DNA of 64,000 bases from a virus (Duplodnaviria > Heunggongvirae > Uroviricota > Caudoviricetes). The stretch is from IMG/VR virus record IMGVR_UViG_3300031088_000776. One strand, given 5' to 3'. Positions 1,849 through 63,028 of the stretch are shown in pieces. Under the pieces are notes generated by a model, which had not been told where the DNA came from, searched no databases, and saw nothing but the letters and a program-made list of their open reading frames with translations. Position 1 is the first letter of the stretch, and each line of letters starts with the position of its first letter. The position numbers and the translations under genes were made by a program.

Positions 1849-1871
1849 ATTTTTAAGTATTTAACAAAGCT

Positions 1872-4408: not shown

Positions 4409-4409
4409 A

Positions 4410-4922
4410 ATGAATCATCTGCAAAAAATTATTGTTAAATCAAATGAGTTAGACTCTAAGAGAGAAGAATTATCAGTAGCTCAGGAAGATTTTCTTAAAG
4501 AGGAACAAGTCTTCAATAAGAGTGTTTCGCGCGAGACTCTTAACTTGCTATTCGTTGGCCGCAATGTTCTTAAAAAGATCTTAAGCCCAATAGAGTTTAA
4601 GAAGTTTGAAAGAGGATACTATAAAACTCAGTTCTTCTCTGGGCTTAAATGGCTGAGAATCCATGACCCTAAAATTAGTTTTGAGGTATGGAGAACTGAC
4701 CCTAGTAAGGGAACAATTATTTTGAAGGGTTTTGATTGTAGTGGTAATTATCTAGCTTACTCTATTTCAGCAGATATTTTGAATTATAGTATTAGAGAAT
4801 TTGCGAAGATGGTTAGGGTTCAATCTAAAGAGGCTCTTATAAAGTCTTGGGAGGATGAAATTTTAAAGGCTGAAGAGACTATCGAGCGAAATAAAAAGAA
4901 TTTGAAGAAATTTACTCACTAA
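4410..4922 (+). CDS. hypothetical protein
   Basis: ORF whose start abuts the stop of the preceding gene. Confidence 0.5.
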   Translation: MNHLQKIIVKSNELDSKREELSVAQEDFLKEEQVFNKSVSRETLNLLFVGRNVLKKILSPIEFKKFERGYYKTQFFSGLKWLRIHDPKISFEVWRTDPSKGTIILKGFDCSGNYLAYSISADILNYSIREFAKMVRVQSKEALIKSWEDEILKAEETIERNKKNLKKFTH

Positions 4923-4991
4923 TGGTTTACTTTTTATTAGAAAATTGTTAGGATCACATTTACTAAAGGACTCACTTAAACTACGAAGAGG

Positions 4992-5402
4992 TTGATTGAA
5001 ATGACTGTTGAAGCTATCGCTAATATGCGTCTCGATAAAATCCGCTTGAAGAAAATTATTCAAAGACTTAATGAAGAGTTAGGCCCGGGGCTTGTTTCAA
5101 GGGCGGCTTCAGATAAGGGTTACTTCATGTCTATTGAGTGGTGCTCATATGGAGCTGGCCATGCTGAGCCTACTGCTACTGAAGAGGTTAAAATTTTAGC
5201 CTTAGCAACAACTTGGGAGGCACTTTCCCGATTCGGTTCCTCTAATGCTTTAGATTGGCTACAAAATAGCAATTCTCTTCTTGACAGTGAGAGTCCTATT
5301 GAAGTTTTGAGTAAAGGGCACTTCGAGGATTTTGATAATGCATTTGAAGCTCAACTCAATGAGATTCGAGATGTAAGATTAAAGCGAGGATTTGCCGCTT
5401 AG
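4992..5402 (+). CDS. hypothetical protein
   Basis: ORF ending in a tandem TAG TAG, followed by a terminator. Confidence 0.5.
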   Translation: MIEMTVEAIANMRLDKIRLKKIIQRLNEELGPGLVSRAASDKGYFMSIEWCSYGAGHAEPTATEEVKILALATTWEALSRFGSSNALDWLQNSNSLLDSESPIEVLSKGHFEDFDNAFEAQLNEIRDVRLKRGFAA

Positions 5403-5417
5403 TAGTATTTTTATTTC

Positions 5418-5457
5418 AAAGAGGGTTGAAGGTATCAATATGCTTTCAACCCTCTTT
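5418..5457 (+). terminator. intrinsic terminator
   Basis: aaagagggttgaa ... ttcaaccctcttt. Confidence 0.7.
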
Positions 5458-5587
5458 AAGCATAAACATCAACTATCGGCAACAATTAGAGTAAAGTTTG
5501 TTTAATCTATTAACTGATTCTTGTTGATTTTAAGAAATCTCAAAGACCTCCTTTTAGAAAAAGTTTAAACATTATGGGGGTTTAAAA

Positions 5588-6679
5588 GTGAAGTATCATG
5601 TTAACGATGAAGGTCGAGTTCTTGTTTGCAAGGCTGATGTTCGAAGCTGTAACTTCGGTGAAGAAGAAGGCGGTATTGGCCACTATCCTAACCCTAAAGA
5701 CGCTGAGAAAGCATATGAGCGTCATATGCAATCAAAAATTTTCGCGAATGTTTCACGTCATCCTGAAATTCGTTACGAAGCTCCTTTAGAGTCTGCTAGT
5801 TATCATGAAAAAGTCCTTAGAGACTGCTATGACCGAAACAAAGAAATGTCGCAAATACAGCTGGCTAAACATTATAACTATGTTAGCGATACTATTTCAG
5901 AGCTTTATAAAAAAGGGATGACTACTGAAAAGACTCACGCTAGAGAAACTAAAGCTGGCCTAGCATTTAATGATGAAAGAGTCAAGGCTCATACTGAAAT
6001 CATTAATGAATTTATCGAAAAATATAAAGAAGTTCCTGAAAATGGTGAGGCTTTGTTCGCTGGCGGTCTCGGCGGGGCAGGCAAGTCTACAGTTCTAGGG
6101 CAATACGCTGGAATTGATCAATCGAAGTACGTAACCTTAAACCCCGATGATATTAAAGAGATTATGGCTGAGAAAGGATTGATCCCTAAAGTTAAGGGTC
6201 TGACTCCAATGGAGGCATCTCCTTTAGTCCATGAAGAGGCATCGCATATTACTGCTATAATCTTTGAAAAGATTCGTCAAAAGAAAAAGAATATTATCTT
6301 CGATATAACAATGTCTAGTCTTGGTTCAGTACAAAATAGAATACTTCATCTTAAGAAAGCAGGATATACTAAAGTTAGTGGTGTTTTTGTGGATATTACT
6401 CCAGAGACTTCGCATGAGAGAGGCGAGTATCGCTACCGTCAAGGTCTTCAGGATTATCTGAAAAATAAAAACGGCCACGGTGGGAGATTCTTACCGGGTA
6501 ATATTACAAGTGGTTTAAAGACAGATGAAGATAGTCAATTTAAATCTAAGAATGCTGAAAACTTTGTGAATCTTGCTAAACTTGGCGGTTTCACGCATAT
6601 GCCTCGAGTTTTTAATAATAATGTTTTTGGTCGTGACCCACAAGAAATAAGCTTTAAGAAGTTCGTTAAAGGTGAGTAG
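5588..6679 (+). CDS. N-module family protein with a C-terminal P-loop kinase (zeta-toxin/AAA_33-like)
   Basis: N-terminus MKYHVNDEGRVLVCKADVRSCNFG..GHY..AEKAYE carries the shared module. The C-terminal domain has the Walker A motif GGLGGAGKST. Confidence 0.5.
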   Translation: MKYHVNDEGRVLVCKADVRSCNFGEEEGGIGHYPNPKDAEKAYERHMQSKIFANVSRHPEIRYEAPLESASYHEKVLRDCYDRNKEMSQIQLAKHYNYVSDTISELYKKGMTTEKTHARETKAGLAFNDERVKAHTEIINEFIEKYKEVPENGEALFAGGLGGAGKSTVLGQYAGIDQSKYVTLNPDDIKEIMAEKGLIPKVKGLTPMEASPLVHEEASHITAIIFEKIRQKKKNIIFDITMSSLGSVQNRILHLKKAGYTKVSGVFVDITPETSHERGEYRYRQGLQDYLKNKNGHGGRFLPGNITSGLKTDEDSQFKSKNAENFVNLAKLGGFTHMPRVFNNNVFGRDPQEISFKKFVKGE

Positions 6680-6761
6680 ATCTTAGTAGTTAGTTTAATG
6701 TCTTAAAATTTGATTATTAGAAGAATTGCGATATAGTAGTTAATGACGAAAGGATTTAATA

Positions 6762-6986
6762 ATGGAAACTACTCTTAAAGAACTCTTTGAAAAGTACTCG
6801 AACGGTGAATTGACTCTTGCGGAAATTAAGCCTCAACTTGCTAATGTTGCTTGGCCTGAAAAGAAGACTGAATCCGGAGAAACTTGGTATGAGGGCAATC
6901 AGGATAATACTGTTGCTGGAGTTCAGGCGACTCTTGAGACGCGCCGCGATCGGCGTAAGTTTGAAGAATTTCTCGCTATCATTTAA
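6762..6986 (+). CDS. hypothetical small protein
   Basis: 74-aa ORF. Confidence 0.4.
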   Translation: METTLKELFEKYSNGELTLAEIKPQLANVAWPEKKTESGETWYEGNQDNTVAGVQATLETRRDRRKFEEFLAII

Positions 6987-7006
6987 GCTATAAGTTTAGA
7001 ATTAAC

Positions 7007-7046
7007 TAAAGGGTTGAACCAACATTTTAATGGTTCAACCCTTTAG
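7007..7046. terminator. bidirectional terminator hairpin
   Basis: taaagggttgaacc ... ggttcaaccctttag, lying between convergent genes. Confidence 0.7.
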
Positions 7047-7068
7047 AGGCTTAAGATTATTGTATGTT

Positions 7069-7434
7069 CTATTCTTGCTTACCAACGAGATAGTCACCTG
7101 CAAATACACGAATAGTCTTGAAGTATCTTTTCATAGATTTCTCAATAGTATCCCCACCAACATTGTTAGAGGTATGCACAATGACTTCTTGAATATTTGG
7201 TGAGTTATCGAAAAAGCATAATTCTTCTATCTTGCTCAATACTGGAATAGTTGAATCTTTTTCTCCTTCAGGGGTTAATCCAAGATCATGATCAAACCAT
7301 AGTTGTTCAATGATAGTATTAGAATCAATAGAGTTGAGCCACTCTAGAGCTTCAGCGCTCGATCTCAGCACAATTGTGTCTTCCTTTTCGAATTTCTTCA
7401 GAAAACTTCTTTCATCGTCAATAAGAACAATCAT
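7069..7434 (-). CDS. CheY-like receiver (REC) domain protein, stand-alone
   Basis: MIVLIDDE (acidic pocket), WFDHDLG (candidate phospho-acceptor Asp), IVHTSN (Thr) and a later Lys follow the spacing of a REC domain. Confidence 0.4.
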   Translation of the reverse strand: MIVLIDDERSFLKKFEKEDTIVLRSSAEALEWLNSIDSNTIIEQLWFDHDLGLTPEGEKDSTIPVLSKIEELCFFDNSPNIQEVIVHTSNNVGGDTIEKSMKRYFKTIRVFAGDYLVGKQE

Positions 7435-7607: not shown

Positions 7608-8381
7608 ATGACTAGATACCATATTAACGATGCGGGTAATCCTGGGCAGTGTGAAGCGAAGATCAAGTGCCGCTTTGGTGATTTAGAGACTGAGCATTAC
7701 GGATCGCGAGAAGAAGCTGCACAAGCCTATGAAGAGAAGCAAGAAAAGGAGATTCAAGAAGCGCGGAAAGCCTTAGACACTCTTAATAAACTTGAAGGTG
7801 TTAGCAGAAGTTTAACTAAAAACTCAGATAGACTTAGACAAAAGATTGAAGCTACAGAGAAGATCGTTAAAGTTGCGTCTAACGAGGGGAATTTAGATTC
7901 TTTCGAGAAGCATTATAATGAATTAAAAAAGCTTGAAGCAGAACGTAAAGAAGTTGAGACGAAACGAAAAGAAGTTGCTTCAATAATCTCTAAAAAAGAA
8001 GAGTTACAGAAATCAAGCTCACAAAAGACAACAGCTGCTCAACTACGAATTGCTGAAGATAAAACACTAGAGACTCGAGCTAAACTAATTAAAGATAAAT
8101 CAAAGTTGCAGGCTGCTGAAAAGAAGTTTAACTCAAAAATAGCCTCTAGGGCTGATATAAGCGAGCTGAAGCCACTTATGGAAGAACTTAAAATATTACA
8201 AGATCAAGTTGAACAATCTAACTCAGACTGGAAGAAGGCTACCTCTGAACTTTCAAAACTTAAGAAAGCGGAGCCAAAACGAAAGAAAAGCAATCCAGAA
8301 GTAAAGACGCTTAAGAAGTCTTCTCGAAGTGAAGATTACTACAATTATAATTGTGGTGGATACGGATCTGGTCGATGCTAA
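7608..8381 (+). CDS. N-module family protein with a Lys-rich coiled-coil C-terminus
   Basis: N-terminus MTRYHINDAGNPGQCEAKIKCRFG..EHY..AAQAYE. The remainder is a coiled coil that ends CGGYGSGRC. Confidence 0.5.
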   Translation: MTRYHINDAGNPGQCEAKIKCRFGDLETEHYGSREEAAQAYEEKQEKEIQEARKALDTLNKLEGVSRSLTKNSDRLRQKIEATEKIVKVASNEGNLDSFEKHYNELKKLEAERKEVETKRKEVASIISKKEELQKSSSQKTTAAQLRIAEDKTLETRAKLIKDKSKLQAAEKKFNSKIASRADISELKPLMEELKILQDQVEQSNSDWKKATSELSKLKKAEPKRKKSNPEVKTLKKSSRSEDYYNYNCGGYGSGRC

Positions 8382-9043: not shown

Positions 9044-9065
9044 TCTTTAATGCTTAATAAATAAT

Positions 9066-9105
9066 TTAAGGGTGGATAGCCTAGAATATTGCTATCCACC
9101 CTTAA
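9066..9105. terminator. bidirectional terminator hairpin
   Basis: ttaagggtggatagc ... gctatccacccttaa. Confidence 0.7.
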
Positions 9106-9164
9106 AGAGACCTTTTATTTAATTTTGAAAAAATCTTAGACTATATAGACTTTGGCTAAGGTAT

Positions 9165-12575: not shown

Positions 12576-12596
12576 AGCGTTAATTTAACTAAATAG

Positions 12597-12636
12597 AAAA
12601 CCGCCAAGCTTAAAATATCTAAGCTTGGCGGTTTTC
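12597..12636. terminator. bidirectional terminator
   Basis: aaaaccgccaagctta ... taagcttggcggtttt. Confidence 0.8.
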
Positions 12637-12678: not shown

Positions 12679-14052
12679 TTAATCTTCCTCTCCCTTCTCA
12701 ATTCTTGCGGCTTTCATCATTGCCATGAATTGATTTTTAACTCCTTGTTTTTCCCAAAAGTCCTTAATCTCGTTTCTTTGCTCTCCAGTAGTTGATTCGT
12801 CGCGGAAATCCTTAACACTAGCCCTTAAATCAGCAACTCTATCTTTTTTAGTTTGTTCCTTAGGCCATTGATATTCCCCAACTTCTTTGCGGTGAGTTTT
12901 GAAAATTGTTCGAAGATCTTTAAGGTCTTCATTCATAGCCTTACGATTATAGTCTTTACCAGTTTTAGCTCTAACGTTTTCCTCCATTCGGTCTCCAACA
13001 ACATCTAGAAGAGCTTTAGAGTTTAATTGGTAATTATCTTTTGTAGTATGGAAATTACGCCCTGGATTTTTAGGGTCAACAATTACCTTAGCGGTTGCCC
13101 AGTCTTTATACGGATTGTTGGCTGTATTCTCCCAATGCCCGTCAGAAATCTGCCCTTTAAGCTCATCTTCGAGCAACCATTTCTGCGCTTGAGTTCTAAC
13201 TCTAATAGTGTTGCCTTCGTCAGGAATCATGTGACCGAGACCGGCTTCTTCAAGCTCTGTCTGCTTATTCTCAACTTTTTTAATACTGTCTATCAATCGA
13301 CTACGAGCGCGTTCTTCACTTGCTTTATGCTTTTCAAGTCTCTCGACTAAATCAAATCCTTTACCTCTCGGATCAGAACCTGGAATCTTCTCTACTTTAT
13401 CAGTTTCTTTGTTGTAGCCGTAGTGATAGATACGACCTTCTTCTTCAGCATGTAGTTCATCATACTTCTTATGTCTCGAGATCATCTCGTTCAATTCGAG
13501 CCTTGCATAATTCTTATTTATAGCAGCAGTGTTCAATCCTTCAACCATAACCCTCTGCTTAGGTGTAGAGGTAATATTAGCTACGTAAGCGGGGATTTGT
13601 TGGATTGAATCTAGAGAGTCTTTCTCTTTTGCGTCAACATTACTCTCTACAGAGGCACCGTCTTCACGCTTCCAAGCCCCGTAACCTGCGCGAAGTTTTT
13701 CAGCAGTTGCAGATGTAGAAAGTTCCTTGCCTCCCTTGAAGGCTCGAACACTACCGTCTGGTTGAATCTCAATAACCTTACCCTGCGGATGCACATAACG
13801 CTCGACTTTAGAAGCGACTTCATATGCCCCACTAGTTAGAACACCGTTATTTGCTGAAGTAGGTTTATCATTAGTCTTTCTAGATTTCTTCATTGGTTTT
13901 TGAACTGTTTGTGAAGCCATTGAGAGTTCATATGCCTGCTGAGCTATCTCAGGTGACGAATAATGCTGTGCATCTCCACCAAATTTGCAATCACGAATTT
14001 CTGCAGTGCAGACTCCCGGGACTCCCTCATCGTTAACATGATATTTAGCCAT
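12679..14052 (-). CDS. N-module family protein (457 aa), C-terminal domain unknown
   Basis: N-terminus MAKYHVNDEGVPGVCTAEIRDCKFG..QHY..AQQAYE. Confidence 0.55.
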   Translation of the reverse strand: MAKYHVNDEGVPGVCTAEIRDCKFGGDAQHYSSPEIAQQAYELSMASQTVQKPMKKSRKTNDKPTSANNGVLTSGAYEVASKVERYVHPQGKVIEIQPDGSVRAFKGGKELSTSATAEKLRAGYGAWKREDGASVESNVDAKEKDSLDSIQQIPAYVANITSTPKQRVMVEGLNTAAINKNYARLELNEMISRHKKYDELHAEEEGRIYHYGYNKETDKVEKIPGSDPRGKGFDLVERLEKHKASEERARSRLIDSIKKVENKQTELEEAGLGHMIPDEGNTIRVRTQAQKWLLEDELKGQISDGHWENTANNPYKDWATAKVIVDPKNPGRNFHTTKDNYQLNSKALLDVVGDRMEENVRAKTGKDYNRKAMNEDLKDLRTIFKTHRKEVGEYQWPKEQTKKDRVADLRASVKDFRDESTTGEQRNEIKDFWEKQGVKNQFMAMMKAARIEKGEED

Positions 14053-15242: not shown

Positions 15243-15261
15243 AACTGCTATTTTTTGATTT

Positions 15262-15433
15262 TCTTAGAGTAGCGAAAACTGCGCTACTAAGACCACCTAG
15301 TTTGCCGTGATAGGCTCGGGTCTAACTAGGTGGTCTTTTCATGTTTAGATGCAGTTTTAACGGAAAATACTGTTTACTGTATGACTATACCCTAGACAGT
15401 AAAACCGATGCTACAGGACGCTTAGGCTCGACC
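15262..15433 (-). repeat. family A composite repeat, copy A2 (reverse orientation; acts as a + strand terminator)
   Basis: ctgcgctactaa, then gaccacctagtt [21-nt loop] aactaggtggtc, then tttt, followed by the reverse complement of the ttagggtatagtcatacag module. Confidence 0.8.
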
Positions 15434-16160: not shown

Positions 16161-16997
16161 AAAGACTCTCCTATCAAGCTATTTAACTCTAATATCCTAT
16201 CACATGAGCATCCATCTCCTCTAACACTTTAAGAGTTTTTGAATAGGGCTAAAAGTACAGTTTTCTGTTGCTAACTACCTTACCTACCATGGACATTAAC
16301 TTGAGGGGTATAGGGACCTGCTAAGTGAACAGTGCCACCATACCCTCACTTACTCAGACTCAACCCTCTCGACACATCGCCACTCTATCCCTAGTCACGG
16401 TGCTCGCTCAACATACACTCAACAGTCAGTAAACCCGGTTCTCTCAGCAGTATAGCGAAGAGGTGAACAAATACTCACGGAAAACTAGCTACTGCGAGAC
16501 TGTCTGGTGTCGCTGTTTAGCGTATATGACAAATCGACTATTGAGATTACTGATGTAGCTTGGTTTCTATAATTATATATTAGGCTGTTAGTCGAAGGAA
16601 CCTCTGAATAGTCATCTGACGTAATGTATTCTTCTCTAGTTTCAATGAGGCCTGACGAACTAGATATTTTTGTTTAATTGGGTTCTAGCTTCATTAGAAC
16701 TGACGCTAACTACCTTACCTACCATAGACTTTAGCTTGAGGTGTATACGCGTGCATAATCACCTGCTCCCACCGCTCACTCAAATTTACTAAAAAGTTAT
16801 AAAGATGGCCATAAGAAAGTTACTGGCAAAATTACAATCGCTGACAACACGTTATAGAAAAATAAAAAATTGCGTTAAAGCGAAGAGTTTGATAATGTTT
16901 GTGAGTGATGACCTATATCACGCAAATCTAGTTATCACTTGGTAAAAGTTTTTTGATAGGATAATCAAGTGTCACACTGCACCAACAAGGGGGAACA
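16161..16997. other. 837-bp ORF-free, C-rich structured region; candidate large ncRNA
   Basis: No ORF of 60 aa or more on either strand. It holds the B2 repeat (16403-16530), two copies of ctaactaccttacctaccat.gac (16271, 16706) and the hairpin gaggggtatagg/ccataccctc. Confidence 0.35.
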
Positions 16998-17285: not shown

Positions 17286-17761
17286 TATTTAAGTCTAATT
17301 AGAGGTGGTCATACAATTAACAGTATGACCACCTCTAAGAGTATTAATAATAAGATTTAAAAAAGATGATGATCTCTATTCTTAATAGAAATCAAATTCT
17401 ATATTGGATATCTGGTGATATTCTTAAAGAAGTCTTTGGTCAAATTGCTTTTAATATTTCCAACGTTTAGCGATAAAACTAACTTTTATATTAACCTAAA
17501 GAATACTTTGAAAGTTAAAATAATTTTTATTAGAATGAATTATGAGCTTTACATGATGCACTCCTATAGAGCTTTAAAAATATTAAACACTAACCTATTA
17601 CTAGTGAAAAAATAAAGAGATTAGACTTCAATTATGATAGAAAAATATTTGATTGTTCAAAAAATAGCAATCAAAGTAAAATGTTTCGCTTTTGAGGCGA
17701 CATGTGATAATGTTATTTTTGTCTGATGAAAAATTAGGCTTACACGAGAAGAGAAGGAACG

Positions 17762-21920: not shown

Positions 21921-22080
21921 TCTAGAAAATAGATCTAACTGATCTTTCTATTGGCACAATACTTATATGAGTAAAGCCAATTAATCTTTTAATTTGAGGG
22001 TGGGTTCTCAACGCTAAGGGAACCCACCCTCAAAAAGAATTCTACAATATTACGCTTAAAGAACTGTAAGGAGAATATAA

Positions 22081-28500: not shown

Positions 28501-28575
28501 AAATAAATAACTCTTAGGCTAGAATTGGTAAAGTAATAGAAACAATTCTAGCCTAAGAAAGTATCTAAAGATAGA

Positions 28576-29409
28576 ATGAATAGAATTTATAGGAATCTTG
28601 AAGAAATTGCACCTCATTTAGTTTCAGAGTGGGATATAGAACGCAATGGGAATAATCTTTACACTCATTTTTGGAATACTCGAGAAGACCCACCCCACTG
28701 GAAATGCAAAAAAGACCACCGGTGGACTATGCGATGGGATGCTAGAGTTGATCAAGGGCAAAATTGCCCCTATTGCTCTGGTAGAAGAATTATAGTCGGG
28801 GAGAACGATCTTCAGACTCGATTTCCAGAGATTTCTAAAGATTGGTCATTCGAATTAAACGAGCGAACGCCTATTGATTATCACCCCTATTCCCATAACA
28901 GAGTTTGGTGGAATTGTTCTGAAAATATTCACAAACCCTATTCACAGTTAATCTCTAAAAGAACTGGTCGTGGTACAGGTTGCCCTGAATGCTCTAAAGG
29001 TAGGGGCTCATCTAAAGGTGAATTTGAAGTTGGCCAACTTCTTGAAAGCATGGGGCTAAATTTTATACAGAATTCTAGAAAGATTATTCCACCTATGGAA
29101 TTAGACTTTTATATTTCTTCTCTTAATATTGGGATTGAATACAATGGAGAGTGGATGCATTCTAATCAAGCCTTGAAGCCTGATTCAAAGGATTCAAGTT
29201 TTCGTGATTATCACCTTAGGAAAAAGCGGCTTGCTAATTCTGAGAGTATTGATTTAGTTTTTGTGTGGGAGCATGATTGGACTGTACATAGAGATATAGT
29301 AAAAGAAGCTTTAATAGTGTTTTTCAAAACTGGGAAAATTTCAAAAATTCTTTCTCGTTTAGAGTCTTTTAAAGATGTTGATAAGGATTGCTGTTTATCG
29401 CGAGTCTAG
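28576..29409 (+). CDS. zinc-ribbon repeats plus a Vsr/DUF559-like endonuclease domain (homing-endonuclease-like), paralog 1
   Basis: WKCKKDHRW..CPYCSG, WNCSENIH..CPECSKG, then ELDFYISSLNIGIEYNGEWMHS..DLVFVWEHDW, which resembles the Vsr FVDGCFWH core. Confidence 0.6.
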   Translation: MNRIYRNLEEIAPHLVSEWDIERNGNNLYTHFWNTREDPPHWKCKKDHRWTMRWDARVDQGQNCPYCSGRRIIVGENDLQTRFPEISKDWSFELNERTPIDYHPYSHNRVWWNCSENIHKPYSQLISKRTGRGTGCPECSKGRGSSKGEFEVGQLLESMGLNFIQNSRKIIPPMELDFYISSLNIGIEYNGEWMHSNQALKPDSKDSSFRDYHLRKKRLANSESIDLVFVWEHDWTVHRDIVKEALIVFFKTGKISKILSRLESFKDVDKDCCLSRV

Positions 29410-29435
29410 ACTGTTTTTGTGTATGAATTTAGATC

Positions 29436-29582
29436 AAGTAAAAACTGCGCTACTAAGACCACCTAGTTTGCCGTGATAGGCTCGGGTCTAACTAGGTGGT
29501 CTTTTGCAGTATTTTCGCAGTTTTACAGTGAAATGCTGTCTACTGTATGACTATACCCTAAGCAGCATTTTTGATGCTATAG
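29436..29582 (-). repeat. family A composite repeat, copy A3 (reverse orientation; terminator-like on the + strand)
   Basis: aaaactgcgctactaa, hairpin core, tttt, then the reverse complement of the ttagggtatagtcatacagtagac module. Confidence 0.8.
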
Positions 29583-29705
29583 ACTGCTGGTAGTCGCTTT
29601 GAGAATGGCTCAAAAAATTTCTTTCAAGCGATCTTTTTCGGTTCGCAGTTGGTAAGATATCTTTGACAAAATAATAGATAAGTAAGAAAGCAAGGAGTAA
29701 TCCAA

Positions 29706-30839: not shown

Positions 30840-30882
30840 AGAGCTCGCTACAAAGATTTTAGATTTTCTTTGTAGCGAGCTC
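30840..30882 (+). terminator. intrinsic terminator hairpin
   Basis: agagctcgctacaaag ... ctttgtagcgagctct. Confidence 0.65.
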
Positions 30883-30909
30883 TATCTATATTAAGATAAT
30901 GAATATTTT

Positions 30910-39511: not shown

Positions 39512-39590
39512 ACAGCGAGATACTGCAGTCAAACAAGCGTAGCCTTTAAAGAGGTTAGTTTATTGTTTGACTGCAGTATCGCTGTTTAAA
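39512..39590 (+). terminator. long hairpin terminator
   Basis: acagcgagatactgcagtcaaacaa ... ttgtttgactgcagtatcgctgt (stem of about 23 bp), then ttaaa. Confidence 0.65.
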
Positions 39591-50216: not shown

Positions 50217-52388
50217 ATGCAGGAAACACAGTACAAATGGTACGAGGCTCCACAGGGAGTCAAGCAAAGCGACTACACCAGCCTAAATGCTCAATTGAAT
50301 CTTGTTGGCGAAAATAAGATCAACTTCGAAGCAGACAAAGAGGCTGCACGTCAATACATCATCAACGAGATCAACCACAACATGGTCTACTTCCTAAATC
50401 TTCGTGAAAAGCTAGAGCACCTAGTTGACAACGGATACTATGAAGAAGAAACCATCGAGCAGTACACTTTCGACTTCGTTAAAAGCTTGTTCAAGAGAGC
50501 CTACAATAAAGAATACCGCTTCCAATCATTCATGGGAGCATACAAATTCTATACTTCATACGCTATGAAGACCTTCGACGGTAAGCGCTACCTAGAACGC
50601 TACGAAGATCGCGTCACTATGACTGCTCTTTATCTAGCGTGCGGTGACGAAGCCCTTGCTGAAAGTATTCTTGATGAAATTATGAGCGGTCGCTTCCAGC
50701 CAGCTACACCTACCTTCTTAAACGCAGGTAAAGCACAGCGTGGAGAGCTAGTTTCATGCTTCCTACTTCGAGTTGAAGACAACATGGAGTCAATCTCTCG
50801 AGCAGTTAACTCTTCACTACAGCTATCAAAGCGCGGCGGCGGTGTAGCATTAAACCTTACTAACCTCCGCGGAAAAGGTGCTCCAATCAAAATGATTGAG
50901 AACCAATCTTCAGGTGTTGTCCCAGTAATGAAAATGCTTGAAGATGCTTTCAGCTACGCAAACCAGCTAGGAGCTCGACAGGGCGCAGGAGCTGCTTACT
51001 TAAATGTCCACCACCCAGACATTAATCAATTCCTAGATACTAAGCGCGAGAATGCTGACGAGAAAATCCGAATTAAGACTCTATCTCTAGGTGTTGTTAT
51101 CCCAGATATCACCTTCGAGCTCTCAAAGCGTAATGAAGATATGTACCTATTCTCTCCATACGATGTTGAGAAAGTCTACGGCGTTCCAATGTCAGACATT
51201 TCCATCACTGAAAAGTACTACGAAATGGTTGATGATCCACGAATCACTAAGACTAAGACTAACGCTCGCGAACTATTCAAGACTCTTGCTGAAATTCAGT
51301 TCGAATCAGGTTACCCATACCTAATGTTCGAAGATACTGTAAACCGTGAAAACCCAATTCAAGGTCGAATCTCTATGAGCAACCTATGCTCAGAAATTCT
51401 GCAAGTTTCAGAGCCGTCAACTTACAAGGAAAATCTAGACTACGACACAATCGGCAAAGATATTTCTTGCAACCTCGGATCAATGAACATTGCTATGGCT
51501 TTCGACGGCCCAGACTTCGAAAAGACTATTGACGTTGCTGTTAATGCCCTATCAACAGTTTCTGATCTATCCAACATTGCATCAGTACCATCAATTGAAT
51601 CAGGCAACAACCGCTCACACGCTATCGGTCTTGGACAAATGAATCTCCACGGATTCCTTGCTCGTGAAGAAATCATGTACGACTCTAAAGAGGCTGTAGA
51701 CTTTACCAACATCTACTTCTACTCAGTTCTTTACCACGCTCTAAAAGCATCAAACAAAATCGCTATCAAACGCGGTGAAACTTTCGACAACTTCGAAAAT
51801 TCTAAATATGCTAACGGTGAAGCACTACGTAAGTACATTGAAAAAGACTGGTCCACTCCGGAAACAGAAAAGGTTAAAGAACTATTCACTAGAACTTCAA
51901 TCTACATTCCGACTCCAGAGGACTGGGTGAAGCTTTCCGAAAGTATTCAAAAACACGGTATCTACAACCAGAACTTGCTTGCAGTACCGCCTACCGGTTC
52001 GATCAGCTACATCAACAACTCTACTTCGAGTATCCACCCTGTAGCAGCACCGATTGAAATTAGAAAGGAAGGCAAGCTAGGCAGAGTTTACTATCCAGCT
52101 CCATTCATGAACAACGATAACATCAAGTACTACAAAGATGCTTACATGATTGGTTATGAAGCGATCATCGACGTCTATGCTGCTGCAACGCAACATACGG
52201 ATCAAGGACTAAGCTTGACCTTATTCTTCATGAGTGACGTTAGCACTCGAGATATTAATAAGGCTCAGATTCTAGCTTGGCGTAAAGGGATAAAGACACT
52301 GTATTACATTCGACTACGCCAGAAAGCCTTGGAGGGTACAGAGTCTGAAGGAAACGCTGCAGAGTTCTGCGAATCTTGCATGCTTTAA
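50217..52388 (+). CDS. nrdE: ribonucleoside-diphosphate reductase alpha subunit, class Ib (NrdE-like)
   Basis: N-terminal YTSLNAQLN, the catalytic region SNLCSEI, and C-terminal cysteines CESC. Confidence 0.9.
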
Positions 52389-52404
52389 TAATTAAATAAT
52401 AGTT

Positions 52405-52457
52405 AATAGGGACACGATTGAAATATTACAAATTCATCGTGTCCCTATTGCTCTTTT
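52405..52457 (+). terminator. intrinsic terminator
   Basis: aatagggacacgat ... atcgtgtccctatt, then gctctttt. Confidence 0.8.
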
Positions 52458-52491
52458 AGTAAGTATTTTTAGTCTTAGTAGCGCTGTTTTT
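52451..52491. repeat. left 41-bp terminal inverted repeat of the 52451-54067 cassette
   Basis: ctcttttagtaagtatttttagtcttagtagcgctgttttt. Its reverse complement occurs at 54027-54067 with 41 of 41 identities. Confidence 0.85.
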
Positions 52492-52640
52492 AGACAGTAT
52501 TTTCTTCCTTAGGGTATAGTCATACAGTAGACAGTATTTCACTGCAAAACTGCATAGAAACAGTAAAAGACCACCTAGTTTGCCGTGATATTCTCGGGTC
52601 TAACTAGGTGGTCTTAGTAGCGCAGTTTCTACTCGATCTA
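52470..52640 (+). repeat. family A composite repeat, copy A4 (loop inverted relative to A1-A3)
   Basis: ttagggtatagtcatacagtagacag ... gaccacctagtt tgccgtgatattctcgggtct aactaggtggtc ttagtagcgcagttt. Confidence 0.8.
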
Positions 52641-52724
52641 GAAAACAGCAAAATTATCAATCTAAAATAACTTTCAGTACAATCTTGATAAATACTATAT
52701 GATTACGAAAGAAAGTTTCAAATA

Positions 52725-53786
52725 ATGTCTAAGAAAGTCCTAAGGGGAGTCACAGATCTATCCTCACAAAAACCAGACGTAGCAAAAGATTGGGATTATT
52801 CTAAAAATTCTAAAACTCCAGGTGAAGTGTCTCAATACTCTAATAAGACAGCATGGTGGGTTTGCAATGAGCTTCACTCATGGGAGTCTGTTATTGCGAA
52901 TAGATCTAAAGGTTCGGGATGCCCCGAATGCGCTAAAACTACTCGCGGTGAAAATATTAGTAAAGCTAAAAATATTAGTAATAAGCCATTATATGGTCAT
53001 AAAGAGCTTAAGAAAGAATTCTGCATAGTTAATTCTTACAATCCATACATTAAAGGAAATTCATATCAATCAAAAGTTCTATGGATATGCTCGGAATGTT
53101 CAAAAAGTTGGGTTGCTAAGATTAGCAAAAGAATTAAAGGTAGTGGTTGCCCAAATTGCTGGAAGTTAAACAAAGGTAAAGAATATGTTAAATCAATAGT
53201 TAGATCTAAAGGTTCACTATTCTACACTAATCCAGAAGTTCAAGAATATTGGGACTACGAGAAGAATAAGTTACATAAAATTTATCCAGAAAAGTTTTCA
53301 GCAGGGTCTCACTCTTACGCCTATTGGTTTTGCCCAAAATGCAAGCATTCATGGAGGGCAATAATAAAAAGTGTCGCAATCAAGGGTTCAAGATGTTCTA
53401 AGTGCATGAGTAAAACATCTAAAGGGGAAGAAGAATTATTTAATTTCGTTAGAAGTCTTTATAAAGACGCAATCAAGAATGATAGGAAAATTGTCAATCC
53501 TAAAGAATTAGATATTTATATTCCTAGCAAGAAAGTAGCAATAGAGTACAACGGTGAATATTGGCACTCTAATGAAGTTATGTCTGTTAGAATAAACAGA
53601 ATTTCTGAAGAATATCACAGAGAGAAGATACAGATTTGTGAGGCATATGGAATTGATTTACTTTTTGTCTGGGAGGATGATTGGCTTAGGAATAAAGACA
53701 CAGTTAAAGAATTAATTATAAGATACTTTGATAATAGACAAAAGAACAGCATATTTAAAAGACTTATTTCTAATAGAGATCTATAG
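52725..53786 (+). CDS. zinc-ribbon repeats (at least five) plus a Vsr/DUF559-like endonuclease domain, paralog 3
   Basis: WWVCNELHSW..GSGCPECAK, WICSECSKSW..GSGCPNCWK and WFCPKCKHSW..GSRCSKCMSK. The C-terminus is ELDIYIPSKKVAIEYNGEYWHS..LLFVWEDDW. Confidence 0.6.
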   Translation: MSKKVLRGVTDLSSQKPDVAKDWDYSKNSKTPGEVSQYSNKTAWWVCNELHSWESVIANRSKGSGCPECAKTTRGENISKAKNISNKPLYGHKELKKEFCIVNSYNPYIKGNSYQSKVLWICSECSKSWVAKISKRIKGSGCPNCWKLNKGKEYVKSIVRSKGSLFYTNPEVQEYWDYEKNKLHKIYPEKFSAGSHSYAYWFCPKCKHSWRAIIKSVAIKGSRCSKCMSKTSKGEEELFNFVRSLYKDAIKNDRKIVNPKELDIYIPSKKVAIEYNGEYWHSNEVMSVRINRISEEYHREKIQICEAYGIDLLFVWEDDWLRNKDTVKELIIRYFDNRQKNSIFKRLISNRDL

Positions 53787-53790
53787 AGGT

Positions 53791-54000
53791 ATGATGGAGT
53801 CAGCGAGAATTGGTTTTATATATACTATAAGACATTTTGAGAAAATTCTTTATGTAAGTCAAACTGTCAATCCTGATAAAAGAATTGATTCTCATAAGAG
53901 AAAGCTTTATCGTGGAGACCATAAGCTTGAGTCTCTTCAACATCTTTTTATCGTATTAAGAATTCATAAAGAGTATATTCTGCTAAAAATCCTAGATTGA
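53791..54000 (+). CDS. small GIY-YIG nuclease-like protein (UPF0213/YhbQ-like)
   Basis: MMESARIGFIYTIRHFEKILYVSQTVNPDKRIDSHKRKLYRG parallels E. coli YhbQ ([39 protein letters not shown]). It lies inside the inverted-repeat-bounded cassette. Confidence 0.45.
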   Translation: MMESARIGFIYTIRHFEKILYVSQTVNPDKRIDSHKRKLYRGDHKLESLQHLFIVLRIHKEYILLKILD

Positions 54001-54026
54001 TAATTTTGCTTTTTTAGAATTCGAGT

Positions 54027-54067
54027 AAAAACAGCGCTACTAAGACTAAAAATACTTACTAAAAGAG
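54027..54067. repeat. right 41-bp terminal inverted repeat
   Basis: aaaaacagcgctactaagactaaaaatacttactaaaagag, the exact reverse complement of 52451-52491. Confidence 0.85.
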
Positions 54068-54117
54068 TAATAGTAAACTTGGTAAAATTACAAAAACTGA
54101 AGTTGTAAGGAGCCATT

Positions 54118-55608
54118 TTGCCAAGCAAAACAATAGAAAGAATCTGTTCTTTAGGTCATAAATATCCAAGTTATAAAAATATGAGATTAAGATGTCCCTA
54201 TTGTAACAATAAGAAACTTCTTAAAGGTTTTAATGACCTAAAGACTAAAAGACCAGACTTGGTTTTAGATTGGGGCAACAATAACAAAAAGAGTGTTAAG
54301 GATATAACTATAACATCAGATTATGAGGCCGAGTGGATTTGTCATAAATGCAAACATTGTTGGGTAACTGCTGTTCGCAATAGATCAAACAATAACAATT
54401 GCGTCTCCTGTGAAGACAAAAATTCAGGTAAAGAAAATAGTTTTCATTCTAATAGAGAAAATTTTAAGAAGCTATGGAGCGAGAAGTTAAATGGAGAGCT
54501 ACCTGTATATTTACCTAAATCCTCTTTAAGCATTTACTGGTTCACATGCGGTCAATTTGATCATGAATACCAAGCAACTGTGAAGTCTACTTTTAAAACA
54601 AAATTCAATTGCCAAGTCTGTTCTGGGAATGTTTTTAAAGTGGGGGTTAACGACGCTGAGAGTCTCTATCCTGAGTTAATTAGCAAATGGAGTTCAAGAA
54701 ATGACTTGAAACTTTCTGAAGTAAACCCAAAGTCAACTAAAGAGTATCTTTGGGTTTGTCAAGAGAACCATGAGTCTTTTAAAACTGTTCCAAGAGTGCT
54801 TTCTAAGCCTAATTGCAAGTATTGTCTAAAGAAGGATATAGAACTAGAGGATTCGATCTTATCTACGCATCCAGAATTAGCAAAGAATTGGTCTTCATTA
54901 AATTCTAAAAAATCTTCAGAAATTTCTTCAGGCTCAGGGTATACTGCAGTTTGGAATTGCACTGAGGAGGATCATTCGTTTAAGAGGATTGTCCATAGGT
55001 ATATCAGCAGTAACAACTCTTGCCCTATCTGTAAAGGACATAAACTTCTTAAAGGGTTTAACGATGTTTCTACTGTCTGGCCACAACTGAATGATTTACT
55101 TTCAGAAAGAAATGAGAATCAAAATATTCTTTCTGAAATAACTTTTAAGTTCTCTACCAAGCTTTACTGGACTTGTAAAAGGGGTCATGAAACTTATTGT
55201 TCAGCATATCAAAGAGCTAACTTTTCATGTGGTAAATGCACTAGCAGTAAGGGTGAAGACGAGTTAAATGACTTCGTTAACAGCCTTAAGTTAGATTCTA
55301 TTCAAGGCTGCAAAACCTTAATTAATCCTTTTGAAATAGATATCTATATTCCAAAATTGAATATTGCTTTAGAGTTTAATGGAGACTATTGGCATTCAGA
55401 TGAGATTGTTGCTGGTAAGAGTCGTTTTAAGACTGCTGAAGAATACCACTCATATAAAAAGCTTCTTTGTCGGGAAAAGAATATTGACCTGTACTTCATC
55501 TGGGAGAGCGATTGGATAGATAATCAAAGTGAAGTCAAAAGCTCTTTGAAAAGACTTCTCGAAGGAAATAAATCGGACCCTATTCTAGAAAAGTTATCGA
55601 ACTCTTAA
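54118..55608 (+). CDS. zinc-ribbon repeats (at least seven) plus a Vsr/DUF559-like endonuclease domain, paralog 4
   Basis: Multiple W.C..H/CxxC ribbons. The C-terminus is EIDIYIPKLNIALEFNGDYWHS..DLYFIWESDW. AAGGAG RBS plus TTG start. Confidence 0.6.
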   Translation: MPSKTIERICSLGHKYPSYKNMRLRCPYCNNKKLLKGFNDLKTKRPDLVLDWGNNNKKSVKDITITSDYEAEWICHKCKHCWVTAVRNRSNNNNCVSCEDKNSGKENSFHSNRENFKKLWSEKLNGELPVYLPKSSLSIYWFTCGQFDHEYQATVKSTFKTKFNCQVCSGNVFKVGVNDAESLYPELISKWSSRNDLKLSEVNPKSTKEYLWVCQENHESFKTVPRVLSKPNCKYCLKKDIELEDSILSTHPELAKNWSSLNSKKSSEISSGSGYTAVWNCTEEDHSFKRIVHRYISSNNSCPICKGHKLLKGFNDVSTVWPQLNDLLSERNENQNILSEITFKFSTKLYWTCKRGHETYCSAYQRANFSCGKCTSSKGEDELNDFVNSLKLDSIQGCKTLINPFEIDIYIPKLNIALEFNGDYWHSDEIVAGKSRFKTAEEYHSYKKLLCREKNIDLYFIWESDWIDNQSEVKSSLKRLLEGNKSDPILEKLSNS

Positions 55609-55635: not shown

Positions 55636-55750
55636 ATGCTCAACAGTCAGTAAACCGGGTTCTCTCAGTAGCATAGCGAAGAGACGAACAAATACCAACC
55701 TAAAACTAGCTACTGCGAGACTGTCTGGTGCCGCTGTTTAGATCATATTA
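55636..55750 (+). repeat. family B repeat, copy B3
   Basis: caacagtcagtaaaccgggttctctcagtagcatagcgaag ... aaaactagctactgcgagactgtctggtgccgctgtttag. Confidence 0.75.
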
Positions 55751-55782
55751 AAAATTTCACTAAAGTCAACCTAAAAGATAAT

Positions 55783-55828
55783 AACCCGCGAAGCGCATTC
55801 TATGGAGGAGTATAGCGCTTCGCGGGTT
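55783..55828. terminator. bidirectional GC-rich terminator
   Basis: aacccgcgaagcgc ... gcgcttcgcgggtt, with an A/T run on both sides. Confidence 0.8.
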
Positions 55829-55856
55829 AAAGTTTATTTAATTTTATTTAAGAATT

Positions 55857-60612: not shown

Positions 60613-61695
60613 ATGGCGAAGTACCACATTAGCGAAGACGATCAAGTGCGAGCTTGCAAGGCAAAAATAAAATGCCCTCTAGGTGGAGAGGAAGAGCATT
60701 ATTCTGACAAGAAAGAGGCTTTAGAAAGTCTTGAAAAAATTATTGAAATGGAAATGTCTATTGCTGAAAAGAAACCACAGAAAAGAGCGCCACAGTTAAC
60801 TCAAGCTTTAAAGTCTAAAATGAAATATACAGGTGAAGAGCCAGAGTGGTTTAAAAGTATCAAAGAAGAGTCTTCAGAATTATTTGGAAAACCTTCAGAA
60901 ATTATTGACGAAATTGAGATTGAAGGTCGCCCTACTCTAGTCGTATGGAATAACGAGTCACTCCGCAAACAAGATCGCGGACCTCAGCGGTCAGGATACA
61001 GTGTAAGCAGACTTGAATATAGAGACAAAGAAACTGGAGAAGAGCAGGCCTATCTTAATACTATTTACTCTACAGACGAGTCTTCCGAAAGAGTTTTCAA
61101 AAATGACGAATTGACTCCAATACGCTATCTAGCTAATGAGAACTCCTACTTCTATAGCTATAAAGATGAAGATAAACTACGAAAACTTAAAAAACTTGAA
61201 GAAAACGATAAAGGGTCTGAAGAAACTTATAACGAAAAAATAAAACTATGGAAGTTAGGTACTTTTCATCTTCGAGCAGACTTAGGTAGACGCCCCATTG
61301 AAGGGTACAGCTTTGACGAAAAAGACATACCAAAAGACGAAAAAGATCTTGATAAAGACATTGAGAAAATTATCGAAGCAGGTAAAGTCAAATACGACGA
61401 GTATAGGTTAAGATCTAAGACTCCGGGCATTGATTACTCTAGAGTCTCAGATAAGTTAAGAGGCAAAGGATTAGGTGCTTCACTCTATATCTATACCGCA
61501 AAAAAGCTTGCTGAAAAAGATCTAGTTTTATCCTCTTCAACAAACCAAACTGAAGAAGCTTTAAAGGCTTGGCAGAGAATGGGAAAGGACACTAAAATCC
61601 CAATGAAAGTTGTAGTCACTAAATATGTTAACGATGGTTACTCGTCTAATCAAGAAAGGTTTGCTATAGATTTTAGGAAAGATAAGACTAAGTGA
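60613..61695 (+). CDS. N-module family protein, C-terminus possibly GNAT-like
   Basis: N-terminus MAKYHISEDDQVRACKAKIKCPLGGEEEHYS..EALESLE. In the C-terminus, LRGKGLGASLYIY resembles GNAT motif A (R/Q-x-x-G-x-G/A). Confidence 0.5.
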   Translation: MAKYHISEDDQVRACKAKIKCPLGGEEEHYSDKKEALESLEKIIEMEMSIAEKKPQKRAPQLTQALKSKMKYTGEEPEWFKSIKEESSELFGKPSEIIDEIEIEGRPTLVVWNNESLRKQDRGPQRSGYSVSRLEYRDKETGEEQAYLNTIYSTDESSERVFKNDELTPIRYLANENSYFYSYKDEDKLRKLKKLEENDKGSEETYNEKIKLWKLGTFHLRADLGRRPIEGYSFDEKDIPKDEKDLDKDIEKIIEAGKVKYDEYRLRSKTPGIDYSRVSDKLRGKGLGASLYIYTAKKLAEKDLVLSSSTNQTEEALKAWQRMGKDTKIPMKVVVTKYVNDGYSSNQERFAIDFRKDKTK

Positions 61696-61742: not shown

Positions 61743-62813
61743 ATGGCAAAATACCACATCTCCAAAAATGGCGAAGCTAAAATTTGCACAGCTAAGAAAA
61801 GAGCCTGTCGATACGAGAGTGAAGAACACTTTGAATCTTATGAAGCAGCGCAATCAAAGTCTGAAGAAATACTTTCTAAAAGATTTGGGAATATTGAAAC
61901 TATTAAAAGAGATACATCAGTAAGAAATAATAAGGCTTCAAAGTCTCGAAGCAATGACAAAGCCTTTACTGTAAGTCAATTAACAAAAGATATTCAAAGT
62001 TTTGCAAAAAATACTCCTCCAAGAAGATTAAATAAGTCTTTTAAGCTTCCTGAGGTTGCGCAAATCAAGGCTGAACTATTAAAATTCAACAATTCTGGAG
62101 ACCACTATCTTGACGAGAAGACTTTGCGATTCTACGAAAATAAGATAAGTATTATGGCGACCTTCAAAGATTTCGATGACGCTCCAACCTTACTTTACAT
62201 TGACAAGAGAAGCGGGACACTTTCGATCCGAGACAATCTAGATGAGATTGATGAAAAAGAAGATGATGATCTTGTAGTAAGATATATAGAAACCAAACTC
62301 AGTGATGAAGAGCTAGAAGACCCTTATAAAATTTCTGAAAAGGTTGCTGATCTCATGGATGATGCTGATAGGATTAAAGACTGGGGCTCACAAGAAAGGG
62401 CTGTTGCTGCTGCATATCTATCTTATGAGCATTATAGAATTAACGAAGCTTTGAGGAACAATACAGCAAGCGATAGCTTAAAGAAATCTATAGAAAAACT
62501 TGAGAGACAGCACACTTTAAAAGAGGAGAAAGTTGTCTACAGAGGGTTGAGAAACTTAAGTGCAGATATTGCAGAAAGCTTATCAAATGGTTCATTTAAA
62601 GATGGTGGGTTATTATCGACCTCTACTAACCCAAAGACAGCATTAGGCTTCTCAGGCAATAAAAAAGACTCAATAATACTCAAAATAATACTCCCTAAAG
62701 GTACTGAATGCTGGAACATGAGTGATGATTCAGAGAATGAGATAATTCTGCCTCGAAACTTCGATCTTTCAAAAGCTCAAATTCTGAAACTTAACGAAAG
62801 ACTAGACGTGTAA
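61743..62813 (+). CDS. N-module family protein with a C-terminal ADP-ribosyltransferase domain (R-S-E class, C3/VIP2/Alt-like)
   Basis: N-terminus MAKYHISKNGEAKICTAKKRACRY..EHF..AAQ. The C-terminus has YLSYEHYRINEALRN, VVYRGL (Arg), LLSTSTN (STS) and ENEIILP (ExE). Confidence 0.65.
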   Translation: MAKYHISKNGEAKICTAKKRACRYESEEHFESYEAAQSKSEEILSKRFGNIETIKRDTSVRNNKASKSRSNDKAFTVSQLTKDIQSFAKNTPPRRLNKSFKLPEVAQIKAELLKFNNSGDHYLDEKTLRFYENKISIMATFKDFDDAPTLLYIDKRSGTLSIRDNLDEIDEKEDDDLVVRYIETKLSDEELEDPYKISEKVADLMDDADRIKDWGSQERAVAAAYLSYEHYRINEALRNNTASDSLKKSIEKLERQHTLKEEKVVYRGLRNLSADIAESLSNGSFKDGGLLSTSTNPKTALGFSGNKKDSIILKIILPKGTECWNMSDDSENEIILPRNFDLSKAQILKLNERLDV

Positions 62814-62825: not shown

Positions 62826-62990
62826 AAGGTTGAGCCTAAGCGGTCTATAGAGTCGAAAATACTGCTTAGGGTATAGTCATACAGTAGACAGCATTTTCCG
62901 TTAAAACTGTCATTTTACAGCAAAAGACCACCTAGTTTGCCGTGATAGGCTCGGGTCTAACTAGGTGGTCTTAGTAGCGCAGTTTTCGCT
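62826..62990 (+). repeat. family A composite repeat, copy A5 (loop inverted; terminator-like on the - strand)
   Basis: gagcctaagcggtctatagagtc ... ttagggtatagtcatacagtagacag ... gaccacctagtt tgccgtgataggctcgggtct aactaggtggtc ttagtagcgcagttttcgctac. Confidence 0.8.
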
Positions 62991-63028
62991 ACATTATAGA
63001 ATCAGTATTTTCAACTTCTATTCAGTCT

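Follow-up and report, generated by a model that had tools for sequence, protein, structure and literature searches.

A composite intergenic repeat with a hairpin loop in two orientations in a huge-phage genome

Small inversions associated with hairpins in plastid non-coding DNA were reportedly described by Kelchner and Wendel in 1996 and by Kim and Lee in 2005. These flip-flop inversions have since been surveyed and are recurrent and homoplasious (PMC6824564); at plastid 3'-end hairpins they recur between two forms of identical free energy (PMC6824564). Inversions confined to the loop have also been documented at hairpins that pair perfectly, with inter-strand template switching given as their cause (PMC8794818). 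Here we describe Family A, a dispersed composite repeat in a 64,000-nucleotide stretch (the window) of the Caudoviricetes record IMGVR_UViG_3300031088_000776, in which a 21-nt hairpin loop stands in two reverse-complementary states relative to its flanks. The window corresponds to positions ~159,909-223,908 of a 697,643-bp metagenome contig (ENA ERZ27247443 k141_1324127), an uncultivated phage-like genome of ~0.7 Mb, and Family A was sampled in ~82 kb of that contig, namely the window and ~18 kb beyond it, yielding six copies (A1 to A6). Our best reading is that the loop was inverted by a kind of mutation already known, the hairpin flip-flop or template switch, here in an unusual setting and with an unusual loop length.

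As in the plastid inversions, the loop is exactly reverse-complemented between perfect inverted-repeat stems with the flanks untouched, and the hairpins are intergenic, lie at gene 3' ends, often between convergent genes, and have equal free energy in both forms. The 21-nt loop and 14-bp stem of Family A fall within the plastid range. Unlike in plastids, where one orthologous locus is compared across species or individuals, the two states are found here among paralogous, dispersed copies within one phage genome. Template-switch mutations (Loytynoja and Goldman, 2017, PMC5453318; Monttinen and Loytynoja, 2022, PMC8794818) resemble Family A in the inversion of the loop alone with no footprint in the stem, and in clustered changes that create or extend inverted repeats, as in the right arm of A1 and the stem of A6. 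In contrast, the documented template-switch loop inversions are mostly of 4 nt, with a maximum of 7-8 nt, and concern ribosomal RNA and microRNA genes, whereas the loop here is of 21 nt and lies in phage intergenic DNA, where template switching is proposed from the pattern of the copies and not reconstructed on a phylogeny.

Two further groups of elements are related in form. The terminal hairpins of parvoviruses, including adeno-associated virus, and the telomeres of poxviruses exist as flip and flop isomers, which are produced by hairpin transfer at the termini during rolling-hairpin replication. They share with Family A a palindrome interior in two reverse-complementary states against a fixed outer stem and flank, but the Family A hairpins are internal and dispersed. 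The BOX, REP/BIME, Correia/NEMIS and ERIC elements of bacteria are short, modular, hairpin-forming intergenic repeats, dispersed in both orientations, that affect termination and mRNA stability. Family A has the same modular, hairpin-forming and dispersed character in both orientations, but it differs in having no sequence similarity to them, no Rfam match, no terminal inverted repeats or target duplications, and a phage as its host. To our knowledge, inversion of the loop within copies has not been described for these bacterial families.

Copies, anatomy and loop states of Family A

Five of the six copies lie in the window and the sixth, A6, lies 5 kb past its end, in a neighbouring stretch designated L005; the 9 kb next to the window upstream contain no copy. 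The arm AGACCACCTAGTT gave 12 matches at no more than two mismatches (1.2 expected from shuffles), and the 24-nt box TTAGGGTATAGTCATACAGTAGAC gave 5 matches (0 expected from shuffles). These matches, together with the reading of the sites, bear out an earlier note on this DNA that had counted five copies in both orientations within the window. The copies and their parts are as follows, hairpin core meaning the two arms and the loop, and R and F the two loop orientations.

A1: 271-455, + strand; L box 271-285, P box 309-332, left arm 367-380, loop 381-401 (R orientation with 2 substitutions), degenerate right arm 402-415, R box 414-428, A-rich tail to 455
A2: 15249-15433, - strand, between convergent genes; R box 15276-15290, hairpin core 15289-15337, P box 15372-15395, L box 15419-15433; TTTTCATG after the hairpin on the + strand
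A3: 29430-29588, - strand, directly after a DUF4379 gene (28576-29409) and upstream of recA; R box 29442-29456, hairpin core 29455-29503, P box 29538-29561, without L box
A4: 52472-52664, + strand; extra R-box copy GTCTTAGTAGCGCTGTTT 52472-52492, P box 52509-52532, outer stem half AAAACTGC 52546-52553, left arm 52567-52580, loop 52581-52601 (F orientation, GG>TT), right arm 52602-52615, R box 52614-52628, tail to 52664
A5: 62828-62992, + strand, between convergent genes; L box 62828-62842, P box 62866-62889, hairpin core 62924-62972 (F loop), R box 62971-62985
A6: L005 17318-17500, + strand, outside the window, between convergent genes
Solo R box with tail: 53993-54046, - strand, a partial seventh copy without hairpin, P box and L box

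In element orientation, the order of parts is an optional L-box stem, the P box and a long imperfect palindrome. The palindrome, folded with RNAalifold from the six copies, is AAAACTGC..TAC..AAGACCACCTAGTT-[21 nt]-AACTAGGTGGTCTT.GTA..GCAGTTTT, in which outer pairings of AAAACTGC with GCAGTTTT and of TAC with GTA surround a perfect stem, AAGACCACCTAGTT/AACTAGGTGGTCTT, that measures 14 bp and not 13 bp as first described. The sequence ttagtagcgcagttt, previously listed as a module in its own right, is the 3' half of this same palindrome. Where an L box is present, it forms a second stem, CCTAAGCGGT/ACTGCTTAGG, with the 5' edge of the P box, the latter being the 23-nt TAGGGTATAGTCATACAGTAGAC, which includes a -10-like hexamer, TATAGT. 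The internal loops of the palindrome are asymmetric (5+5 nt on the left versus 1+2 nt on the right), and this polarity is constant relative to the flanks in all copies; therefore, the inverted segment is confined to the perfect inner stem and its loop.

The proposed structure fits the aligned copies, with 90% of cells pairing against 31-45% in slid controls, and the hairpin energy of -24 to -28 kcal/mol is nearly equal for both strands and both loop orientations (z-scores -3.7 and -5.2). Conservation is uneven along the element: 22-23 of the 23 P-box positions are identical between copies, the arms are identical in five copies and substitutions in the loop amount to ~6% overall, while the remaining flanks are ~35-90% identical between copies, most pairs being at 55-80%. 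The module ggtcga.cctaagcg, which had been ascribed to all copies, was confirmed in A1, A2 and A5 and in part in A6, but it is absent from A3 and replaced in A4 by a second R-box copy. Nor has A1 lost its 3' arm, as had been thought. The arm is present and carries 4 substitutions within 5 nt (GGTGGTCT > GACGCGCT), which turn AACTAGGTGGTCTT into AACTAGACGCGCTT and weaken the hairpin (-8.6/-12.4 kcal/mol versus about -24 when intact); they also form a new 5-bp inverted repeat, GCGCT/AGCGC, with the adjoining R box (402-428). In A6, the first base of the loop has changed from T to A, so that the stem reaches 16 bp.

Read in the orientation of the flanks, the loop of A2 and A3 is AGACCCGAGCCTATCACGGCA, and that of A1 is the same with 2 substitutions. 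The loop of A5 is TGCCGTGATAGGCTCGGGTCT, the exact reverse complement of the A2/A3 loop at 21 of 21 positions, whereas only 8 of 21 positions match when the two are compared directly without inversion. A4 has the A5 form with GG>TT, and A6 has the A5 form with 4 substitutions. The claim that the loop is reverse-complemented in A4 and A5 relative to A1-A3 thus holds in flank-oriented alignments, and A6 joins A4 and A5. All copies have the same junctions, AAA followed by AGACC on one side and GGTCT followed by TAGTAGCGC on the other, and it is the loop alone that is reverse-complemented.

The flanks do not sort by loop orientation. The split that corresponds to it, A1, A2 and A3 against A4, A5 and A6, is represented by 1 parsimony-informative flank site, whereas 10 sites cut across it: 4 group A3 with A4, 3 group A2 with A4, and 3 separate A1, A3 and A4 from A2, A5 and A6. 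A2 and A5, whose loops are opposite, have TCCGTT and TCGCTAC in common, and A3 and A4, again with opposite loops, have CACTG[TC] and TACT[TC]GATCTA in common. With flank sites in conflict 10:1 with loop orientation, flanks and loop are decoupled. The scenario that the earlier note had itself set against inversion, namely two subfamilies whose flanks are independent, therefore appears unlikely. Inversion across the stem, as originally proposed, is supported indirectly by the identical junctions, the reversal of the loop alone and the failure of the flanks to sort by orientation, and there were probably at least two inversion events among the copies if the flank sites are taken at face value.

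Origin of the two loop states

We estimate at roughly 0.5 the probability of a joint reading in which Family A has the anatomy given above, its hairpin serves at gene 3' ends, and its loop states come from flip-flop inversion in place. As we infer from the pattern, the loop would have been inverted across the stem with the flanks untouched, and this would have happened more than once among the copies. The inversion may have taken place either by inter-strand template switching at the replication fork or by recombination between the two perfectly complementary arms. Either route would leave stem, junctions and folding energy unchanged and no footprint, so that the flip would be nearly neutral. 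The mutation cluster in the A1 arm and the extension of the A6 stem are template-switch-like footprints. The phage itself encodes a RecA and a RecG-like helicase. With Pfam, neither an invertase nor a transposase was found among the annotated genes of the ~82 kb, the rest of the genome being uninspected. If the joint reading is true, Family A would be a clean example of hairpin flip-flop outside plastids and RNA genes, with a 21-nt loop and among paralogous copies in one huge-phage genome, and it would suggest that the unusually long and perfect intergenic hairpins of this phage lineage are both shaped and maintained by template switching or arm-to-arm recombination. In practice, inverted loops appear as clustered substitutions, by which alignments, variant calls and the classification of repeats are misled.

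A number of points weigh against this reading. The sample was limited to six copies, those accessible in ~82 kb of a 697,643-bp contig, and no locus has been seen in both loop states, the comparison being among paralogous copies only and the second sample being identical. The mosaic flanks could also be fitted by one old inversion followed by exchange of flanks among copies. The loop is better conserved (~6% substitutions) than the variable flanks (20-45%), which is awkward for a purely neutral loop, and covariation judged from pair counts is not significant in six near-invariant stems. As for a role at 3' ends, the T-run follows the stem on one side only, and the 21-nt loop is far outside the ~3-8 nt that is canonical for the loop of an intrinsic terminator. 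A consensus terminator scan called none in 52300-54200, because it allows loops of 3-8 nt only. The P box has no conserved -35 element, reaches 10/12 of the sigma-70 consensus only in A4, and points toward a downstream gene in only two copies of six (A1 and A4), the other four pointing toward convergent genes or the antisense strand. Finally, all five intact cores (A2-A6) read alike on the + strand, ...TAGTT-TGCCGTGATAGGCTCGGGTCT-AACTA..., with three sets of flanks forward and two reverse, and such uniformity is not predicted by a neutral flip.

This uniformity could instead mean that the 49-nt core (arms and loop) is the functional unit and is fixed to the genome strand, by the direction of most transcription or of replication, with flanks lying either way around it. 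Two processes might keep it so: flipped loops might be selected after a repeat has landed the wrong way round, or the cores, as 49-bp direct repeats, might undergo gene conversion with one another. The five intact cores indeed read AAGACCACCTAGTT-TGCCGTGATAGGCTCGGGTCT-AACTAGGTGGTCTT on the + strand (with 2 loop substitutions in A4 and 4 in A6), while the core of A1 is both the sole one in the opposite orientation and the sole decayed one. Moreover, the loop is identical in A2, A3 and A5, where neighbouring flank positions are 60-80% identical, and the + strand carries ~80% of the genes and a positive GC skew. Nevertheless, the two-sided chance probability of the uniformity is ~0.06 with n = 5, which is not significant, and the count falls to 5/6 if A1 is included; the inner loop helix is not kept in A1, A4 and A6, neither a known motif nor an Rfam match corresponds to the core, and the mechanism is only hypothetical. 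We regard a core bound to one strand as unlikely. Its stronger form, in which the core is a polar strand-specific signal (an RNA hairpin loop or a replication-oriented DNA signal) whose arms let wrongly placed copies flip or convert, while wrong ones such as A1 decay, is in our view clearly improbable; a core of this kind would amount to a new kind of polar genomic signal with self-correcting orientation. A single ancient inversion, with both forms copied around and the flanks scrambled afterwards by recombination or gene conversion, draws on the flank splits, whose conflict with one another and with loop orientation points to mosaicism among copies, and on the invariant boxes, which suggest homogenisation. 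It requires extra exchanges on both sides of the 49-nt core, however, and the split that it predicts is the weakest among the larger ones (1 site); we consider it just as unlikely.

The remaining explanations fare worse. Independent mobility of the core, which the earlier note had offered as an alternative to inversion, would make it a minute miniature inverted-repeat transposable element (MITE), with terminal inverted repeats of 13-14 bp, inserted either way into a conserved target within an older repeat. The arms resemble such terminal repeats, and the solo R box at 53993-54046 is an R box that exists without a hairpin. On the other hand, the core was never met outside the composite element in the ~82 kb, the hairpin pattern matches neither IMG/VR nor GTDB genomes (0 in each), all six copies have identical junctions and no target-site duplication, and in no copy do the AAAACTGC half and the R half adjoin without the core, as an empty site (AAA directly followed by TAGTAGCGC) would have it. 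In addition, the solo R box retains the last 4-5 nt of the right arm (AGTCT), which fits deletion or recombination at the R box and not an empty target, and no transposase was found in the window. With no free core, constant junctions and no target-site duplication, a mobile core is very unlikely. A programmed, recombinase-driven switch, that is, a miniature inverton that would switch an RNA loop or a protein-binding site between two states, would be in keeping with the perfect inverted repeats that bracket the inverted segment and with a P box and arms as invariant as though recognised by a protein. Switches of the Hin/Gin/Fim type, however, handle segments far larger than 21 bp, and neither a serine nor a tyrosine recombinase gene is among the annotated genes of the ~82 kb, so that we consider such a switch extremely unlikely. 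Assembly could in principle have made the loop orientation, since palindromes can confuse de Bruijn graphs, and contigs of the Logan collection break inside the repeats. Against this, the k141_ name implies a final k of 141, more than the 49-nt core with unique flanks, and the orientation would then have been read from reads; the 14-nt arms are shorter than any usual k, and the copy-specific loop substitutions of A1, A4 and A6 argue for genuine loci. We give an artefact hardly any credence.

Some classes of element were considered and rejected. Derivation from a MITE or an insertion sequence (IS) was dismissed, as the 185-nt element lacks inverted repeats at its ends, the boundaries of A1 and A2 show no duplication, and there is no transposase Pfam match in the ~82 kb. 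Integron attC sites consist of R''/R' core sites (RYYYAAC ... GTTRRRY) and are used by the IntI integrase. The outer stem AAAACTGC/GCAGTTTT(C/T) does not fit GTTRRRY, and no tyrosine recombinase was found in the region. A reading of the IS200/IS605 type was also ruled out, its defining features being missing.

Gene context and possible function

Each of the six copies is located between genes, next to at least one stop codon (6/6 at a gene 3' end). A2, A5 and A6 are between convergent genes, A3 follows a DUF4379 gene, and A1 and A4 follow genes that have hairpins of their own (179-235 and 52407-52450, respectively), with the P box directed toward the next gene. The terminator-like hairpin at 179-235, immediately upstream of A1, has arms, AAGTAGGTGGT/ACCACCTACTT, that resemble the Family A arms (11/13) in swapped 5'/3' order.

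The T-run GGTCTTTT is always on the P-box side of the hairpin. In A2 and A3 it comes after the hairpin on the + strand, in A4-A6 on the - strand; it had been said that reverse-oriented copies place a U-run after the hairpin on the + strand, and this is true of A2 and A3. In the opposite direction of transcription, U's follow only the outer stem (GCAGTTTT). Dozens of unique perfect stems of 14-18 bp with loops of 7-30 nt stand right after stop codons in the window, long loops being the rule, and the Family A hairpin fits this local terminator style. Judging from its sequence and position, a role as a transcription-termination or 3'-end-protecting hairpin is plausible. Termination would be stronger for transcription entering from the R side, because TTTT follows the stem there, and it would potentially be bidirectional through the A-tract/T-tract outer stem.

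Hairpins with perfect stems after stop codons include those at 7006-7046, 9065-9106, 12596-12636, 17299-17338, 21993-22034, 28512-28558, 30840-30883, 39519-39580 and 55782-55829, and several of them have a GGGTGG/CCACCC or AGGTGG/CCACCT core in common. Evidently, perfect stems are kept so in this genome by some process, and so many unrelated ones suggest a process that homogenises stems.

In the P box, TATAGT is conserved, together with a TAG 18 nt upstream at the -35 position. It may act as a promoter, perhaps for a ~100-nt transcript that would end in the palindrome, or else as a site where a protein binds. A general promoter consensus was ruled out, as the P box is found only inside the repeat, and its resemblance to promoters of the T7/K11 type fails in register.

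The A4 locus relates the repeat to a DUF4379 zinc-finger gene (52725-53786), which, with an open reading frame (ORF) of 68 amino acids (53794-54000), is bracketed by inverted repeats of ~80 bp within 52445-52664 and 53993-54073. The right arm of this pair consists of the solo R box and tail (53993-54046) with 54047-54073, and in the left arm this sequence is split by 139 bp of A4, which two R-box direct repeats of 21 bp enclose; the two arms match over 48 nt at 98% and 54 nt at 87%. A4 and the solo R box represent a filled/empty pair at the R box, with no direct exchange product seen, and the pair looks like the outcome of recombination or deletion at the R box, not like an empty target for the core. 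A syntenic 46-kb relative, L010, lacks DUF4379 genes on both sides of recA, and it has neither a Family A repeat nor DUF4379 genes at the corresponding positions. A DUF4379 homologue of 68% identity is encoded on a 2.1-kb contig, uninformative on the repeat, with a GIY-YIG gene adjoining. With a homologue beside a GIY-YIG gene and none in L010, the DUF4379 genes look mobile or homing-like.

Promoter-early stem-loop (PeSL) cassettes of T4-like phages (PMC2839356, PMC4122927) are likewise dispersed composite intergenic repeats of large phages that combine a promoter-like box with a stable stem-loop. They are also associated with accessory genes, as Family A is with DUF4379 genes absent from L010, and they are apparent recombination substrates, as the A4/solo-R pair suggests for Family A. 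However, PeSL cassettes have clear sigma-70 -35/-10 boxes and an AT-rich upstream region, and they are located upstream of, and co-oriented with, the ORF that they drive (PMC2839356, PMC4122927). Family A, in contrast, has no conserved -35, places its box before the hairpin, occurs in both orientations, faces a gene in 2/6 copies and has no sequence similarity to PeSL. It may be called loosely analogous to PeSL, although it fails the defining features. Family A is an uncatalogued, regulatory-looking megaphage cassette tied to mobile-looking DUF4379 genes.

Distribution and other features of the window

Family A is a lineage-specific, previously uncatalogued composite intergenic repeat family of ~150-185 bp. 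No match to A5 was found among GenBank phages by blastn, and megablast of 25 kb found nothing close to this genome among them. The P box has 0 matches in IMG/VR and 0 in GTDB genomes, and its 2 matches in JGI metagenomes come from one and the same unrelated locus, at chance level for a 20-mer. With Rfam 15 at the gathering threshold, the sole match in the window is a transfer RNA (tRNA), and a permissive Rfam search of A5 returned a single chance-level match outside the element (E=0.95). Contigs of Logan SRR8867410 are 100% identical to the window and are broken inside Family A repeats; SRR34902444 provides a single 2.1-kb contig, distant from every Family A copy. A DUF4379 search for paralogues elsewhere in the contig gave foreign proteins only. 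RecA relatives at 56-67% identity are encoded on other contigs of 570-730 kb, the closest at 66-67%.

The genes of the window form a phage-like replication and nucleotide-metabolism module. Those of the region encode RecA, DnaB, a sliding-clamp-like protein, a RecG-like helicase, class I ribonucleotide reductase, T4-type RNA ligase, bpMoxR, rIIB and dCMP deaminase, in addition to several DUF4379 zinc-finger proteins. G+C content is 37-39%, GC skew is positive throughout, and ~80% of the genes are on the + strand.

Another dispersed repeat, Family B, is present at 1758-1849, 16418-16534 and 55639-55755. It has a 17-bp stem, a 30-nt loop and a conserved 3' box, GACTGTCTGGTG.CGCTG.TTAG, and all three copies, loops included, are in one orientation. 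Direct repeats were found at 16265-16312 and 16700-16747 (48 nt, 88%, spaced 435 nt) and at 2504-2653 and 3000-3149 (150 nt, 72%, spaced 496 nt).

A tRNA gene at 3539-3611 on the + strand, labelled tRNA-Pyl by ARAGORN, has the anticodon CTA and corresponds to an amber (UAG) suppressor, while TAG still ends 10 of the 56 genes of the window. These observations point to recoding of TAG elsewhere in the genome, possibly in a late region, of the kind described for other huge phages.

Six proteins have in common an N-terminal motif of ~45 amino acids, M(A)KYH[IV]N..G...C.A...C.FG...H[YF]. They are encoded at 5588-6679, 7608-8381, 12679-14052 (- strand), 60613-61695, 61743-62813 and L005 17573-18880 (- strand), and their C-terminal parts are mutually unrelated and include a zeta-toxin-like kinase and an ADP-ribosyltransferase. 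A profile of the motif had no match in a large protein database; the motif might serve effector proteins as a shared module for targeting or packaging. Immediately upstream of the window, positions 175-7358 of the stretch designated L007 hold an operon resembling type IV pilus or type II secretion systems, which is unusual for a phage and includes genes for two PilB/GspE-type ATPases, a PilC/GspF-like protein, a prepilin peptidase, PilM and a PilO-like protein.

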